Below, piece by piece: positions 22,555-30,780 of a DNA stretch of 32,000 bases. The stretch's first letter is position 1; the number at the start of each line of letters is the position of its first letter. A model generated the notes under the pieces. It worked only from the letters and a program-made list of their open reading frames with translations. It was not told the DNA's origin and did not search any database. The position numbers were made by a program, and so were the translations under genes. This DNA comes from Candidatus Harpocratesius repetitus (GTDB lineage Archaea > Asgardarchaeota > Lokiarchaeia > Sigyniarchaeales > Promethearchaeaceae): assembly GCA_021498095.1 (NCBI GenBank), contig JAIZWK010000001.1, positions 570,001 to 602,000 on the forward strand. The letters run 5' to 3'.

Positions 22555-24063
22555 ATGACTGATTTAAGTAGTTTTAAAGAATTAGAAGCGCGCATTTCAG
22601 ATATTTTGCATCTTGGATATGCCACTTCAATTCTTGCATGGGATATGCGTACCTATATGCCTAAGCAAGGGATTATGCAACGTGGAACAGCACTATCTAT
22701 TTTACAAAAATTAATTCATGACAAATTCACAAATCCTAAAATGGGAGAATTGCTAAAAGCAAGTAAATCCATTCCAAATTTGACACCAGCTCAAATTCGT
22801 GAATTAGAATTATTTGAACGCGATTATCTTCGCGAAACAAAAGTACCCACTGATTTAGTTGGAGAAATATCCAAAAAATCTAGCACAATGGAACGTATAT
22901 GGGTTACCGCTAAACAAAAAAGCGATTTTTCAATGATAAAGAAGGACTTGCAAGAAATGGTTAATTTATTAAAGAAAAGAGCGGAATTTATTGATCCTTC
23001 CCGTGCTGCTTGGGATGTGCTTGCAGATGAATATGAACCAAATGTATCTGCTGATCAAATTACTGCGTTTTTTAACCCTGTTCGTGATGGAACCATTAAA
23101 TTAATTAAAAAATATCGTGTAGCCATTGAAGATTGTCATGATGTTCCAAATCCTTCTCTTTTGGATGCTCCTGCTACTAAGGCTCAATTAATGCAGGTTA
23201 ACGATTTAATTCTTGATTTCTTACAATTGGATCGGAATCGAATACGTGTAGATGAAACTGAACATCCTTTTACTTCTGGAATGCTTGATGACGTGCGGAT
23301 TACAACTCATTATCTGACTGGACAGCCCATGGCTTCTTTTACATCGCTTATGCATGAAGCAGGTCATGGAATGTACGATATGAATCTCCCACGTGATGCA
23401 AAATTTACTCTGCGAGGGCAGCATATGTCAATGGGTATTCATGAATCTCAAAGCAGATTTGTGGAAAATATCATAGGAAAAAACCCTGTGTTCTTGAAAT
23501 ATATTTTCCCCAAACTTCAAAAAATTATCCCTCCATTTGCTGCTTTTAACACAACGGAATTTATTCGTGCTTTAAATTCAATTCAACCCACAAAAATACG
23601 AATTTATGCAGATGAGGTAACCTACAGTTTGCATATTATTCTACGATTTGAAATGGAGCGCGATTTGTTTTCTGGTAAAATTACAGTTGATGAACTTCCT
23701 CAAGTATGGAATGAAAAAATGGAAAAATACTTGCAACAAGAGATACAATCTGATGCTGAAGGGGTTCTGCAAGATACACATTGGTACGCTGGGTTATTCG
23801 GTTATTTTCCTGATTATGCATTAGGTAACTTGTATAACAGTCAAATGCTACATATTATGGAACATCAAATTCCAGATTGGGAAGAACAGTTAAGTCAAGG
23901 AAAATTTGGAGCCATCAAGCAGTGGTTAATAAAAAATGTGCACCAAGTGGGAAATATGTATGATCCCTTACCGTTTATCGAAAAACTCTCAGGAGAACCA
24001 CTTAATCCTCATTATTTCTTGGATTATGCAGAAATGAAATTCGGAAAAATATTTGAATTTTAG
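22555..24063 (+). CDS. M32-family (thermostable) metallocarboxypeptidase
   Basis: HPF, zinc motif HEAGH, GIHESQSRF, IRIYADE, QDTHW and GYFPDYALG. Confidence 0.95.
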   Translation: MTDLSSFKELEARISDILHLGYATSILAWDMRTYMPKQGIMQRGTALSILQKLIHDKFTNPKMGELLKASKSIPNLTPAQIRELELFERDYLRETKVPTDLVGEISKKSSTMERIWVTAKQKSDFSMIKKDLQEMVNLLKKRAEFIDPSRAAWDVLADEYEPNVSADQITAFFNPVRDGTIKLIKKYRVAIEDCHDVPNPSLLDAPATKAQLMQVNDLILDFLQLDRNRIRVDETEHPFTSGMLDDVRITTHYLTGQPMASFTSLMHEAGHGMYDMNLPRDAKFTLRGQHMSMGIHESQSRFVENIIGKNPVFLKYIFPKLQKIIPPFAAFNTTEFIRALNSIQPTKIRIYADEVTYSLHIILRFEMERDLFSGKITVDELPQVWNEKMEKYLQQEIQSDAEGVLQDTHWYAGLFGYFPDYALGNLYNSQMLHIMEHQIPDWEEQLSQGKFGAIKQWLIKNVHQVGNMYDPLPFIEKLSGEPLNPHYFLDYAEMKFGKIFEF

Positions 24064-24578: not shown

Positions 24579-25559
24579 ATGTCTGATGATATTAAAAAAG
24601 CGCCCCGTTATTTAATCCGTTTTCATGGACGTGGAGGACAAGGGGCAGTAACGGCAGCACAATTGTGTGCCATGGCATTCAATGGACCTGCAACGTGTAT
24701 GCCTACGTTCGGCGCAGAACGCATGGGTTCGCCAGTTGCATCGTTTGTAAAACTCTCAAAAGACTTTGAAAAGGTCAGAACTAACGAGCAAGTGTATTCG
24801 CCACAATATGTTGCAGTTTTAGATGACACACTGCTATCTGACGTAGATTGCACGGCAGGAATGGTTCCTGGAGGCTATCTAGTAATTAATACCTGCCGCC
24901 CAATCGAAGAAGTAAGGGAAATTATCTCAAAAAATAATCCACCAGCAATTAACATTGCATTAATTGATGCAACCAATATTGCTCTGGAATACTTAGGCCG
25001 AAATATAACCAACACATTAATTTTAGGTGCTTTATTGAAAGTTGCTCCCGAATTATTTACTATCGAACAGCTCTCTGATGCAATTGCAGATCAATTTAAT
25101 CCTAAAATTGCTCAAAAGAATATGGATGCAATAAAAGTTGTTCCTGATGCAACAACTGTTTACCCAGCAGATGGAGATGTTAAAATCTCATATGAAACTG
25201 ACTATAAGAAACAATGGAGTCATGTTAAACCAGATTTAATCGGAGTAAAAGAATGGGATCTTGCAGGAGTATGGTATGTAGATAAAGTGGATGGAGGATC
25301 TAAACGGGTAAACACTGGGGCATGGGGTGTTTCTGTTGCTCAGTATCATCCTGAATACTGCATTCAATGTGGAAATTGTGTATTTGTTTGTCCAGATTTC
25401 TGCATCCTTCGGGAAGAAGTTGACGGAAAATGGCAAGTTGTAGGTGTTGATGAATTCCACTGTAAAGGCTGTGGTAATTGCGTTGCTGTCTGTCCTGGTA
25501 AAAAGGATAAGGAAACTGGTGAAAAGCATAAGGCTTTAACCATGGTGATGAAATGTTAA
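24579..25559 (+). CDS. 2-oxoacid:ferredoxin oxidoreductase (POR/VOR type), fused gamma-delta subunit
   Basis: Gamma motifs IRFHGRGGQGAVTAA and FGAERMGSPV; C-terminal ferredoxin motifs CIQCGNCVFVCP and CKGCGNCVAVCP. Confidence 0.93.
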   Translation: MSDDIKKAPRYLIRFHGRGGQGAVTAAQLCAMAFNGPATCMPTFGAERMGSPVASFVKLSKDFEKVRTNEQVYSPQYVAVLDDTLLSDVDCTAGMVPGGYLVINTCRPIEEVREIISKNNPPAINIALIDATNIALEYLGRNITNTLILGALLKVAPELFTIEQLSDAIADQFNPKIAQKNMDAIKVVPDATTVYPADGDVKISYETDYKKQWSHVKPDLIGVKEWDLAGVWYVDKVDGGSKRVNTGAWGVSVAQYHPEYCIQCGNCVFVCPDFCILREEVDGKWQVVGVDEFHCKGCGNCVAVCPGKKDKETGEKHKALTMVMKC

Positions 25560-25572
25560 GGAGTGAAAAAAA

Positions 25573-26799
25573 ATGTCAGTACAACCAATGAATCCTTTCT
25601 TTAGGGAAATAAAAGAACCAGTCGAATTAACCATGACTGGGAATTATGCTGTTGCTGGGGGCGTTACACAAACCGATCCAGATGTAATTTGTGCTTTTCC
25701 TATCACACCACAGACTCAATCAGTTGAAGGATTATCTGATGTGGTTAATCATGGTAGATTAAAAGCTGCATTTGTAAATGTAGAATCAGAATTAGCTGCA
25801 TGTGCATATAGTACTGCCGCTTGCGCCGCAGGAGCTCGAACCTTTACCGCCACAGCGTCTCAAGGTTTATTGCTTATGACTGAAGCACTTCCTATGGCAC
25901 CCGGTTGGCGAGTACCACTAACAATGTTGATTTCAGCTCGTGCATTTAATTCTCCAAACTTATCAATTTGGAATTCGTGGGAATTTACACTCTTATCAAG
26001 TTTTGGATGGAATTGCATTGTATCGGAAAATGTACAAGAAACATATGATGCATCTATTATTGCCAGTCGAATTGCTGAAGATACTCTCTTTCCGACCCAA
26101 TTTGTACATGATGGATTTATCATTTCCCATAGCGCGCAAAAATTCTTCGCAATCCCAGATGAAGATGTATTAAAGTACACACCGAAAAAACCAAGGCATC
26201 ATGTTAATACTAAACGACCTGGTACATGGGGAAGTATTATTACACCAGATTATTTCATGGAAGCACGACTTGCTTTAGAATTAGAAAAACGCACTGTATT
26301 GGATAAAATGGAAGCTGCTTTTCGTGAGTTTGAAAAAATAACTGGTCGTGCTTATCATTTAATAGAAACATACAATCTTGATAATCCATCTAAGACTGTT
26401 TGTATAACCATGGGTTCAATGGCAGGAAACATTCTTACTTGGATGCAAAACAATAAAGACATCGGGTTAATAAAACTTCGAGCTTGGCGTCCTTTCCCAG
26501 CAGAACAACTACGCAAAATTATAGAAGAACATAACATTGAGAAAATTTTCGTCTTAGAAAAAGATGATGATCTTTCTGGACAATTACCACCAGTAGCTTC
26601 TTCAATAAGTTCTTCTTTGATGGGTTTACCTGTAATTCTTCGCTCTTTTATTGTTGGATTAGGTGGACGAGATGTGACCAAAGATGAGATTGAATTTGCA
26701 GCAAAGAAGATGAAAGATGTGAAAGATAATCAAGGTCGGCTATATGATTATCTCGGAGTTCGAGAATCTAAAGGGAAATTATGGGAGGCGAAGTTTTAA
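25573..26799 (+). CDS. porA: 2-oxoacid:ferredoxin oxidoreductase alpha subunit (PorA-like)
   Basis: TGNYAVA, AFPITPQT (YPITP variant), VESE, TATASQGLLLM, IKLRAWRPFP and GLGGRDVT. SD GGAGTGA. Substrate specificity not determinable. Confidence 0.92.
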   Translation: MSVQPMNPFFREIKEPVELTMTGNYAVAGGVTQTDPDVICAFPITPQTQSVEGLSDVVNHGRLKAAFVNVESELAACAYSTAACAAGARTFTATASQGLLLMTEALPMAPGWRVPLTMLISARAFNSPNLSIWNSWEFTLLSSFGWNCIVSENVQETYDASIIASRIAEDTLFPTQFVHDGFIISHSAQKFFAIPDEDVLKYTPKKPRHHVNTKRPGTWGSIITPDYFMEARLALELEKRTVLDKMEAAFREFEKITGRAYHLIETYNLDNPSKTVCITMGSMAGNILTWMQNNKDIGLIKLRAWRPFPAEQLRKIIEEHNIEKIFVLEKDDDLSGQLPPVASSISSSLMGLPVILRSFIVGLGGRDVTKDEIEFAAKKMKDVKDNQGRLYDYLGVRESKGKLWEAKF

Positions 26800-26814
26800 T
26801 TCGAGGTGATTATT

Positions 26815-27921
26815 ATGACTTTGATAATAAAAATGGATGAATTATTAGCTCGGAAGGAGCGAAATACAGTATTATACATCGGGTACGATAACGAAGCATT
26901 CATGAATACAGGTATTCAAGAAAGTGGAACTACACCTTTTGGTGCATCAACTACAACAGGACCTGGTGGAGAAAAAATTAAAGGAAAAATTGGAATTAAA
27001 GAAGATTATCTTCCGGGATTTACCTTATTAGGTCATAAAAGTGCATACTTTGCTACAGCAAGTGTTGCTTATCCATTAGATTTTATAGGAAAAGTAATGG
27101 ATGCTATGAAAACTCCAGGAGGTGGGTTTATTCAAGTATACGCGCCGTGTCCTCGAGGTTGGCGTCATGATGGTGGCGACACGAATCGTATTGCTAAAAT
27201 CGCGGTTGAATCTGGATATTGGCCACTAATAACTGTTAAAGTTAAGAATGGACAACCAACATATTACTATACAACTGTACCTGGAATGGCAAAACCTGAA
27301 AATGAAGAAGATTTTATTGGAACTGATGATGAAAAATTATTGGAGTTGCTGAAATCTCAAGGAAAATTCCGCCATTTATTAAAACCTGAATTTTTAGAGA
27401 AGAACATTGACGAATTATTCGGACAAATCAAAGCCCGTAATGCGAATTTAAATAATTTACTCCGTCAATTTGGAACGGATGATAGAAAAATTCGTTATTC
27501 AATAATCCACTCCAAAATTCCACCTCAAAAGCATATTAATCCAGGACACGGATTGTGTGGTGGTTGTGGAGCAGGGTTTATGTTGAATCAATTAACTTCA
27601 GCAGCATATATGATTGCAAAAGAGAATATAATCTATGTAAATAACACTTGCTGCGTGGAAGTTTCAACCAGTAAAGATGATGTAACCAGCTGGAATGTTT
27701 CATGGATACATCAACTTTTCGAATCAGGAGCTACAGTCGCAGATGCAATTTCAACTGCCTACCGAATTATGTATAATAAAGGAATTGAAAAAGAAGTTCC
27801 ATATGTAATACATATTGGCGGGGATGGATCTACTGTCAATATTGGGTATCAATTCCTAAAATCTGCCATTGTTCGGGCTTCTGGTTATCAAATTATGAAT
27901 GAAGATTTAAAAATTGAATAA
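26815..27921 (+). CDS. porB: 2-oxoacid:ferredoxin oxidoreductase beta subunit (PorB-like), circularly permuted
   Basis: All PorB motifs present but in swapped order: YDNEAFMNTG and APCPRGW come first; PGHGLCGGCG, TCCVEV and GGDG come last. ATG 26815 follows SD GAGGTGA. Confidence 0.9.
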   Translation: MTLIIKMDELLARKERNTVLYIGYDNEAFMNTGIQESGTTPFGASTTTGPGGEKIKGKIGIKEDYLPGFTLLGHKSAYFATASVAYPLDFIGKVMDAMKTPGGGFIQVYAPCPRGWRHDGGDTNRIAKIAVESGYWPLITVKVKNGQPTYYYTTVPGMAKPENEEDFIGTDDEKLLELLKSQGKFRHLLKPEFLEKNIDELFGQIKARNANLNNLLRQFGTDDRKIRYSIIHSKIPPQKHINPGHGLCGGCGAGFMLNQLTSAAYMIAKENIIYVNNTCCVEVSTSKDDVTSWNVSWIHQLFESGATVADAISTAYRIMYNKGIEKEVPYVIHIGGDGSTVNIGYQFLKSAIVRASGYQIMNEDLKIE

Positions 27922-28108
27922 TTCAAGCAAATAGAATTGAGGATGTTATTTCTTTTTTGCTTTTTTTTATGGTTTTTGTCTTTAAATGTAAATGAATGAT
28001 TTTTCTTTTTCTTCATTTTTTTTACATTCCATACTCTCAATCATAATTTCACCAAAACCTTAAAAATGAAATAATCCATAAATATCCTATCAAGTAAATT
28101 TGCTATAG

Positions 28109-28248: not shown

Positions 28249-28603
28249 CCTGGTTTTGTCTGAATTAACTTATAAATTTTCAGAATCCATTAAGATTTTC
28301 TATTTATTTAATTTGAAATCGGAAAATACTCCTGCAAAATAGTTATGAAGGCAGGATATAGTTGATTCCATTAATGGACAAAAGGTGACTTGGTGACTCA
28401 GCTTAGATGCTTTTGCTTAATAATTTATCTTAAGTTTTATTTGGATGCGCTATGAGTGCACAATTGCCGAATTTGGAAAATTATTCGATTTACTTGATGA
28501 AACAAACCATAAATATCTTAATAGAGAAAGAATCTCAAAAAGAAAATATCTTGAAGAGAAAAAATCTTGAAAAAAAAAATATATTAAAAAGGTGAAAGAA
28601 ATA

Positions 28604-30055
28604 ATGTTATTTAAAAAAGCTGAGCAAAAACAAAGTTTAGAACAACCAATTACTTTGGAATCTGTTTCTGAACTAAGTAATCGAGTTTTACTCGACAATA
28701 ACCAAATTCCTAAAGCATGGTTTAATATTGTACCATATCTTCCTGAGAAACCCTATCCAGCAGTATTAGCTGACAATACACCTGCAACATTCGAAATGTT
28801 AAGTCAATTGTTTCCGATAGAATGTGTAAAACAAGCAGGATCACAAGAAGAATTTGTTCTAATTCCTCAAAAAATTCGGGAATTATATGCACTTTGTAAT
28901 CGACCTACACCCCTTCAAAGAGCTTTTCAATTAGAAAAGGCAATTGGGGTAGATAGTGATCGCATCAAAATTTTCTTTAAATGTGAATTTGTAAGCCCTA
29001 CAGGATCTCATAAAACGAATACTGCAATAGCGCAGTCATATTATGGGAAACAAGAAGGAATAAAAGGTTTTACTACCGAAACTGGAGCAGGTCAATGGGG
29101 ATCAGCATTATCAATGGCAAATTCAATGATGGGATTAGAAACAAAAGTGTTTCAAGTTCGAGCTTCGTATAATGATAAACCAGGGCGACGAGTAATGATG
29201 CAGAATTTTGGTGCAGAATTACATCCTTCGCCATCAGACATTACAAAAACAGGTCAAAAATTCTATCAAAAAAATCCTAAGCATCCTGGTAGTCTTGGAA
29301 TTGCAATTGCAGAAGCAGTTGAAATGGCAATGACAAATCCTGGTTATAAGTATTCCTTAGGATCGGTTTTAGATTTCGTGTTACTGCATCAAACAGTAAT
29401 TGGTTTGGAAGCTCAGCTGCAAATGGAAAAGATTGGGGAGCAACCATCTGTAATCATGGGATCGATTGGAGGGGGAAGTAATTTTGCTGGATTAAGCTTT
29501 CCATTCTTTAAAGAAAAGCTCACAGGTGAACGAGATGAACTTGAATTTATTGGAGTAGAACCTTGTGCTTGCCCATCATTAACAAAAGGAAAGTATACTT
29601 GGGATTATGGAGATTCGGCAAAAATGGCACCTATTATTAAAATGTACTCTCTAGGAGCTAATTTCATTCCACCAACGGTTCATGCAGGTGGTCTTCGTTA
29701 CCATGGAGCCGCACCTTTGGTTTCTATGTTAAAAAATCATAGTTTTATGAAATCTGTGATGGTACATCAGACTAAAACCATAGAAGCGGGTATTTTAATG
29801 GCAAAAACGGAGGGAATATTACCTGCAGTGGAGACTAATCATGTAATTGCAGCAGTAATTGATAGAGCCCTTGAAGCTCAAGAAAATCATCAAAAATGTA
29901 CGATATTATTTAATTTCTCTGGGCATGGATATTTTGATACACATGCATATCAAATATATCATGAAGGTAAAATGATAGATTATGAATACCCTGATAAGGA
30001 TATTCAAAAAGCCATGGAGGATTTTCCACCCATTGATGAAAATAAATTCTTATAA
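28604..30055 (+). CDS. trpB2: Tryptophan synthase beta chain, stand-alone type 2 (TrpB2)
   Basis: IPKAWFNI N-terminus, PLP-lysine motif SPTGSHKTNTA, TETGAGQWGSAL, GGGSNFAG, HAGGLRYHG and FSGHG. No trpA adjacent. ATG 28604 follows AGGTGA; GTG 28592 is the alternative. Confidence 0.95.
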   Translation: MLFKKAEQKQSLEQPITLESVSELSNRVLLDNNQIPKAWFNIVPYLPEKPYPAVLADNTPATFEMLSQLFPIECVKQAGSQEEFVLIPQKIRELYALCNRPTPLQRAFQLEKAIGVDSDRIKIFFKCEFVSPTGSHKTNTAIAQSYYGKQEGIKGFTTETGAGQWGSALSMANSMMGLETKVFQVRASYNDKPGRRVMMQNFGAELHPSPSDITKTGQKFYQKNPKHPGSLGIAIAEAVEMAMTNPGYKYSLGSVLDFVLLHQTVIGLEAQLQMEKIGEQPSVIMGSIGGGSNFAGLSFPFFKEKLTGERDELEFIGVEPCACPSLTKGKYTWDYGDSAKMAPIIKMYSLGANFIPPTVHAGGLRYHGAAPLVSMLKNHSFMKSVMVHQTKTIEAGILMAKTEGILPAVETNHVIAAVIDRALEAQENHQKCTILFNFSGHGYFDTHAYQIYHEGKMIDYEYPDKDIQKAMEDFPPIDENKFL

Positions 30056-30465: not shown

Positions 30466-30525
30466 AGGATAACGTTATTATTACAATATATCCGCGGAGG
30501 ATATAGAGTTTTTGACGTGATTATT

Positions 30526-30780
30526 ATGGCTAAGAAAAAATCAAAGAAACCAGCTCCAAAGAAAAAGAAACCCGCTAGTCGCGCTTCTTATATCGCGAAG
30601 GCACCTATTCGACGTTTAATGAAAGATGAAGGCGCATCTTTAGTTGCGGAAGATGCACTAGAATTGTTAATTGATGTTTTAACCAAAGCCGCTCAAAATA
30701 AAACCAAAGCTGCTATTAAATTGGTTAAAGCAGATAAACGCAAGCGCGTCACTGCCGCCGATATTAGCGCTGCAGAATAA
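30526..30780 (+). CDS. Archaeal histone (HMf-type fold) with Lys-rich N-terminal tail
   Basis: IAKAPIRRLMKDEGASLVAEDA...AIKLVKADKRKRVTAADI aligns without gaps with the HMfB fold as recalled. ATG 30526 follows SD-like GACGTGA; GTG 30517 is the alternative. Confidence 0.92.
   Translation: MAKKKSKKPAPKKKKPASRASYIAKAPIRRLMKDEGASLVAEDALELLIDVLTKAAQNKTKAAIKLVKADKRKRVTAADISAAE

Follow-up and report, generated by a model that had tools for sequence, protein, structure and literature searches.

The third gene of a porGD-porA-porB operon in the window (the whole stretch of 32,000 nucleotides of Candidatus Harpocratesius repetitus DNA analysed here) encodes a natural, conserved circular permutant of PorB, cut inside the helix-strand loop of the GDG...DNE motif. 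The GDG-X(24-27)-N motif is a signature common to ThDP enzymes. We put the probability at about 85% that the gene product is a genuine and functional beta subunit (ThDP, [4Fe-4S]), in circularly permuted form, of a three-gene 2-oxoacid:ferredoxin oxidoreductase (OFOR), porGD-porA-porB(permuted). Its features and those of the operon are listed in Table 1.

Table 1. Coordinates in the window of the operon genes and of the parts of the permuted porB gene; residue numbers are those of the permuted protein.
Feature	Position	Strand	Description and evidence
porGD	24579..25559	+	Gamma (POR domain) fused to delta (2x[4Fe-4S] ferredoxin); opens the operon; Pfam POR 88 bits, Fer4 families
porA	25573..26799	+	Alpha subunit (PYR domain and domain II); Pfam POR_N 168 bits, PFOR_II 46 bits
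Shine-Dalgarno-like GAGGTGA	26803..26809	+	5 nt 5' of the start ATG; read from the sequence
Circularly permuted porB	26815..27921	+	368 aa plus stop; swapped PorB blocks, homologues, selection
New N-terminal tail, residues 1-16	26815..26862	+	Family-conserved; predicted short strand 3-6 and helix 7-12 (alignments, AF2)
Residues 17-206	26863..27432	+	Canonical PorB C-terminal part, positions 116-297; PorB alignments
Linker, residues 207-232	27433..27510	+	Old C-terminus to old N-terminus; between the two PorB blocks
Residues 233-355	27511..27879	+	Canonical PorB N-terminal part, positions 4-118; PorB alignments
New C-terminal tail, residues 356-368 (ASGYQIMNEDLKIE region)	27880..27918	+	Family-conserved; predicted contact with the alpha subunit

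The halves of the protein align to PorB in swapped order, unambiguously and far in excess of chance. A phmmer comparison with Methanosarcina-type PorB of known structure (M. acetivorans, 9bt4_C) gave an E-value of 9.7e-48 in two blocks, query residues 233-355 matching chain residues 2-116 and query residues 17-150 matching chain residues 117-246. With the NCBIfam PorB model NF008819 (300 positions), residues 15-206 fall on positions 116-297 and residues 231-355 on positions 4-118, and the alignment with the beta subunit of oxalate oxidoreductase (OOR; 5c4i_C) displays the same swapped two-block pattern (E 1.1e-43). PorB homology therefore covers the whole PP domain, as both halves find their match, and it is the colinear N-to-C order of the PorB family that is lost. 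Both blocks meet at canonical PorB position 116/117, in the loop between the motif helix and the DNE strand, a region across which 56 aligned canonical beta subunits are free of gaps. The original prediction, of two swapped halves with new termini in the helix-strand loop of the diphosphate-binding motif, is thus borne out.

The first block (residues 17-206) carries the strand, the sequence YDNEAFMNTG and the fourth cluster cysteine, C112, and the second (residues 233-355) carries the CxxC pair (C248, C251), C280, GDG (336-338) and the motif helix. In the DNA, V19-G33 (VLYIGYDNEAFMNTG) occupies 26869-26913, the codon of C112 (within APCP) is at 27148, P243-G252 (PGHGLCGGCG) is at 27541-27570, T278-C280 (TCC) at 27646-27654 and G335-G338 (GGDG) at 27817-27828, all at the places originally given for them. 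After the last of these come the helix GYQFLKSAIVR and a tail of 13 residues, and the chain terminates in ...STVNIGYQFLKSAIVRASGYQIMNEDLKIE. GDG (336-338) and DNE (25-27) lie at opposite ends of the chain, and a contiguous GDG-X(24-27)-N(N) motif is absent. The four cysteines C248, C251, C280 and C112 align with the proximal [4Fe-4S] cluster cysteines of PorB and OOR. Together with G336-D337-G338 and Y24/N26-G33 they are invariant in alignments of 53 and 26 sequences, which agrees with the expected retention of the four cluster cysteines and of both motif halves. Residues N26, A28 and N31 we take, from the sequence alignment, to be the equivalents of the Mg ligand Thr991, of Val993 and of Asn996 in D. 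africanus PFOR (numbering offset by one from the chain index). N26 is a predicted Mg ligand and D337 of GDG would be the other, so that the metal site would be formed by residues that are 12 positions from one chain-end region and 32 from the other.

The reading frame (26815-27921) is intact and is preceded by a Shine-Dalgarno-like sequence (Table 1), both as originally proposed. ATG at 26815 is favoured as the start codon because all close homologues in the alignment begin with MT..; the same observation disfavours the GTG at 26806. The linker region is predicted by AF2 to consist of the end of a long helix (195-219) and a strand (220-229), with pLDDT values of about 86-91.

An artefact of assembly or gene calling, such as a chimeric join or a collapsed tandem duplicate, is hardly conceivable as the source of the swapped order. 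The genome is closed as a single 4.36-Mb contig. The phylum was searched in 400 species-level genomes. Of the 161 that belong to the same class, 130 have either a colinear match or what is clearly a fragment of one; these were assembled independently and several are closed, and the order is accordingly not unique to this assembly. Full-length colinear homologues, including those from closed genomes, are 49-91% identical to the permuted protein. In a protein-database search, more than 120 clusters were 52-88% identical and covered to 92-100% (two partial records apart, to 98-100%), a coverage which implies that they are colinear with the permuted PorB; one of these clusters derives from a 6.27-Mb contig named Ca. 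Lokiarchaeum ossiferum. Moreover, a 56.6-kb Logan contig that stems from another study aligns gap-free to 26400-27927, at 105 substitutions; it spans the whole gene and bridges both its ends and the internal junction. The substitutions among relatives are mostly synonymous (see below). The sole caution on the side of an artefact is that the assembly may derive from the runs X1 and X2, which would then not be independent of it.

Outside this class, only one of 239 genomes has a permuted-type match, which is partial, and the others contain only canonically ordered relatives (E 1e-15 to 1e-35). The single match (G075:C23:2023-2799, query residues 4-274, 53% identity) is located in a MAG with 8% contamination, and may be a binning contaminant or the result of horizontal transfer. 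A HMMER search of 1.84 billion representatives at 50% identity gave 1353 matches, and the order was read in the best 150. The canonical N-then-C order was found in 116 of these 150, a single permuted cluster was present at full length, plus fragments, and no C-then-N order was seen outside the permuted family among the same best 150.

The family is not universal within the class. The whole porGD-porA-porB(permuted) operon is missing in three relatives that are 99-100% complete (G178, G199 and G267), where the best alpha subunit is 35-37% identical, implying that the operon is dispensable there. Two other relatives (G206, locus L049; G270, locus L050) contain an alpha orthologue with a beta gene that is truncated or cut off. 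The alpha orthologue of G206 is situated at the contig start and the beta gene is thereby cut off. In G270 (L050:2733-3160 on G270:C54; a relative from the same taxonomic order) the permuted porB starts normally 4 nt after porA (MSKPERNVISFEDILARKEKSNVF), and after about 24 codons it gives way to DNA that is AT-rich and free of ORFs as far as the contig end; the remainder of the gene was not found elsewhere in this 100%-complete MAG. A truncation, an insertion or a break in the assembly could each explain the interruption.

Both halves of the gene are under strong purifying selection. Nei-Gojobori dN/dS values are 0.05-0.11 for 13 pairs with unsaturated dS (0.14-0.91), dS being near saturation for the gene of the window compared with its nearest relatives. 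The linker and both tails have omega values of about 0.07-0.38 where computable, with no sign of decay. This selection, the synteny with porGD and porA and the predicted alpha-beta interface described below together indicate that the permuted PorB is very probably functional, as had been claimed. The alternative, that it is a degenerate paralogue which has lost ThDP binding and serves a structural, regulatory or other non-catalytic role while canonical OFORs elsewhere do the chemistry, might draw on the two canonical POR/VOR-type operons in the same genome, on the long stem of the permuted clade (1.35 substitutions per site) and on the absence of the operon from some complete relatives. We nevertheless rate it as very unlikely, because all Mg-ThDP and proximal-cluster residue classes are invariant across the family, the cognate alpha subunit retains its substrate residues, and the selection on both halves is as strong as that on a working enzyme. 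The canonical beta genes of the genome, furthermore, adjoin alpha genes of their own, and a situation in which a canonical porB elsewhere serves this operon was therefore not encountered.

The AF2 model of the permuted protein, built from the 53-sequence alignment, has a pLDDT of 80.8 and a pTM of 0.87, and is poor only at residues 29-61, in the loop after DNE..NTG. Top matches in Foldseek are PorB, OOR beta and PFOR (E 3e-11 to 1e-5, TM 0.33-0.42), and in VIA-align the Z values for PFOR domain VI, OOR beta and PorB are 11-12, with alignments of some 180 residues. Superposition on PFOR, which had been suggested as a check, succeeded for one half: residues 15-217 of the model match chain residues 984-1170 of PFOR domain VI with a Z of 12.2. 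The other half was left uncovered, as sequential aligners such as these take only one half of a permutant.

For the complex of the permuted beta with the alpha subunit, the predicted ipSAE was 0.79, and the best of three controls reached 0.00; the ipSAE mark used is reached by 58 of 80 solved complexes and by 2 of 110 mismatched pairs. The prediction runs agreed in at least 98% of the contacts, with a pLDDT of at least 85 for the partner. As PFOR complexes have already been solved, this pass may reflect likeness or memory, and the score by itself does not demonstrate binding. The predicted interface on the beta side consists of positions 346, 347, 350 and 354 of the motif helix and of positions 358, 362 and 364-365 of the new tail.

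The permuted beta subunit is hence encoded together with alpha, gamma and delta subunits, and is predicted to bind alpha. The porGD product scores 152.5 bits with the NCBIfam model PorC_KorC, exceeding its cut-off of 81.1, and 49.6 bits with PorD_KorD, and its residues 47-310 align with the fused delta subunit of oxalate oxidoreductase. The porA product scores 290 bits with PorA_Arch (cut-off 550) and matches 9bt4_B with an E-value of 3.6e-55. Residues T45 (in FPITPQT) and R123 (in SARA) of alpha are equivalent to Thr31 and Arg114 of PFOR, and both are invariant in 26 orthologues. In the relatives, the delta-alpha-beta gene order is retained in every locus with enough flank, and the alpha-beta spacing is often 4 nt, as in one large family. 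Upstream of the operon lies a 502-aa ORF (22555-24063, +) with a metalloprotease-like HEAGH (HEXXH) motif, for which no NCBIfam match was found at E <= 1e-5. About 670 nt downstream of the operon a TrpB-like PLP enzyme is encoded (28592-30055, +), scoring 602 bits with NCBIfam PRK12391, above the cut-off.

We propose the following working of the enzyme. The chain would start with the second half of the PP domain, comprising the strand, DNE..NTG and the C-terminal part with the fourth cluster cysteine; a linker of about 26 residues would then lead to the old N-terminus, and the chain would end with CxxC, the third cysteine, GDG and the motif helix. Once the protein is folded, the Asp of the C-terminal GDG and the Asn of the N-terminal DNE would jointly hold Mg-ThDP, and the PYR domain of alpha would complete the active site, as in canonical PFOR. 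We infer cofactor binding, catalysis and a pyruvate-like 2-oxo-monocarboxylate as substrate.

The substrate assignment is weak because all family models stay below their curated cut-offs. The permuted beta scores 218 bits with the PorB model and 198 bits with the VorB model. The genome contains two more POR/VOR-type operons, both canonical and each with its own alpha; as their PorB-like genes adjoin these alphas, the permuted operon has no other beta gene at its disposal. Unlike the permuted protein, the two canonical betas score better with the VorB than with the PorB model (396 versus 362 bits, and 349 versus 333 bits), which gives a weak hint that the permuted enzyme may be the pyruvate enzyme of this genome. 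The two canonical operons could also cover pyruvate oxidation. Quite possibly, though at somewhat less than even odds, the enzyme is an active OFOR that acts on another substrate, for instance 2-oxobutyrate, the branched-chain or aromatic 2-oxoacids that amino-acid degradation yields, or acids of the glyoxylate/oxalate type. Such a role would fit with the failure of every model to reach its equivalog cut-off, the gamma-delta fusion resembling the delta subunit of oxalate oxidoreductase, the flanking genes for the 502-aa HEXXH protein and the TrpB-like enzyme, and the life of cultured relatives on amino acids via 2-oxoacids (10.1101/726976). It fits less well with the PITPQT sequence of alpha, which has a Thr in place of the Arg of OOR, with the best scores of beta and alpha being those on the PorB and PorA models, and with the leaning of the canonical betas to VorB, which leaves the permuted operon as the most Por-like of the genome. 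Identity as an oxalate oxidoreductase itself was rejected, as alpha does not have the Arg of P-I-R-P and the scores with the three OOR models (alpha, beta and delta) fall far short of the cut-offs.

For family tree analysis, 14 permuted proteins were restored computationally to the canonical order and combined with 56 representatives of canonical order and with 12 canonical betas from Asgard archaea (310 columns, LG+C20 PMSF, quick search, unrooted). The permuted proteins form one clade (SH-aLRT 100), on the long stem mentioned above, which attaches near canonical betas of other Asgard classes, and the two canonical betas of the genome itself are far away. The nearest canonical relatives are the betas of canonical operons in these other classes, with 40-44% identity. 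The alphas of those classes are only 22-30% identical to the alpha of the permuted operon and no closer than the paralogous alphas of the genome (30-33%). Orthology with the operons of other Asgard classes was therefore dropped, since the alphas do not mirror the closeness of the betas. With an unrooted tree and alphas that do not follow the betas, only a single origin is claimed: judging from the one clade and the one full-length permuted cluster, the swap happened once, in the ancestry of the Lokiarchaeia-type class of the source genome.

The proposal that the permutation probably came about by duplication and truncation found no support in these tests. In comparisons with 1000 shuffles each, similarity of the C-terminal tail (13-17 residues) to the canonical strand/DNE columns was not significant (p 0.08-0.76), and neither was that of the N-terminal tail to the motif helix of canonical proteins (p 0.01-0.67; 2 of the 11 sequences gave values below 0.05). 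No tandem double PorB was present among the best 150 of the 1353 representative matches. The breakpoint is where several representatives of 180-240 aa begin. In the two that were looked up, the start lies 8 and 26 nt, respectively, from a contig end; these C-half-only proteins are thus fragments and were discarded as split-gene intermediates. A route by gene fission, in which the gene was split at the motif loop and its halves were then fused again in the other order, would account for the lack of a significant duplicated helix or strand remnant at the termini and of tandem double genes among those 150 matches. This route is nonetheless rather unlikely, as no split PorB genes were found, the C-half-only proteins looked up being at contig edges, and as the NCBIfam VorB/PorB blocks overlap by 3-12 positions in the way that duplication and truncation predict, an overlap which extension of local alignments could also produce.

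Motif-based annotation was expected to fail on a protein of this kind, and NCBI/Pfam-type annotation does miss it. Pfam TPP_enzyme_C (PF02775) matches only residues 14-59 and scores 19.4 bits, below the cut-off of 21.9, and the NCBIfam PorB equivalog scores 217.9 bits against a cut-off of 405. Many permuted homologues are labelled 'hypothetical protein' by NCBI, and OFOR beta subunit by JGI. With these thresholds and names, metabolic reconstructions of Lokiarchaeia can overlook the beta subunit and score the OFOR as incomplete.

The best or near-best structural match of the permuted protein is M. acetivorans PorB (9bt4 chain C), with which it shares the homology over the PP domain, the four cluster cysteines, GDG, DNExxMNTG and the type of alpha partner (9bt4_B). 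It differs from this protein in the swap of the halves at 116/117, inside the ThDP motif, and in being some 60-70 residues longer (16-residue N-tail, 26-residue linker and 13-residue C-tail), and whereas the M. acetivorans PFOR has four subunits, gamma and delta are here fused in one gene. The oxalate oxidoreductase of Moorella thermoacetica (5c4i/5exd/5exe) likewise has three genes with a fused gamma-delta, and its beta is homologous in both halves (Z 11.4), but is in canonical order, and its alpha has Arg in PIRPYT where Thr is found here in PITPQT. The canonical betas of the genome (G000:C1:1053783-1054646 and 953848-954732) belong to the same family and each adjoin an alpha gene, but they are canonically ordered, only 31-35% identical in the C-half, lean to VorB and are distant in the tree.

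A 'circular permutation' of domain order has been described across ThDP families, PP-PYR-x in transketolase and E1 versus PYR-x-PP in decarboxylases and PFOR, which the ThDP site tolerates (10.1101/2021.03.21.436335). In those cases whole domains move and the motif stays contiguous, whereas in the permuted PorB the cut is inside both the PP domain and the motif. No description of a permuted OFOR, PorB or ThDP subunit was found in the full texts searched, which lie outside the subscription journals, and a November 2026 review on PFOR diversity (PMC13768988) has neither 'permut' nor 'Asgard' in its text. In the literature covered, a permutation inside the ThDP motif of PorB is thus undescribed, as the original prediction had it.

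With the halves of the ThDP motif at opposite chain ends and under strong selection, the family offers a natural test of the chain connectivity that is needed by a ThDP/Mg site, and provides protein engineers with a ready-made design. Its presence in cultured Asgard archaea makes biochemical and structural work feasible. The energy metabolism of these organisms has been proposed to run through 2-oxoacid:ferredoxin oxidoreductases (10.1101/726976). A more far-reaching and doubtful reading joins these points: the permuted PorB would be the first natural case in which the PP domain of a ThDP enzyme has itself been circularly permuted, the cut would not be merely neutral, the conserved tails would form an assembly or cofactor-loading element or a gate that is absent from canonical PFORs, and the enzyme would be the main pyruvate:ferredoxin oxidoreductase of Lokiarchaeia. 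It builds on the location of the new chain ends, at the Mg-diphosphate site and the alpha-beta interface, with the C-tail predicted to touch alpha. If this were true, the syntrophic energy metabolism based on 2-oxoacids that has been proposed for the archaeal ancestor of eukaryotes would have the permuted enzyme as its point of entry.

Downstream of porB, T-rich runs (tttcttttttgctttttttta) are present at 27940-27970 of the window, about 20 nt 3' of the stop codon, and possibly represent an archaeal terminator. Farther along, at 30517-30780 (+), the window encodes a histone-fold protein of archaeal type whose N-terminal tail is rich in Lys (MIIMAKKKSKKPAPKKKKPASR...).
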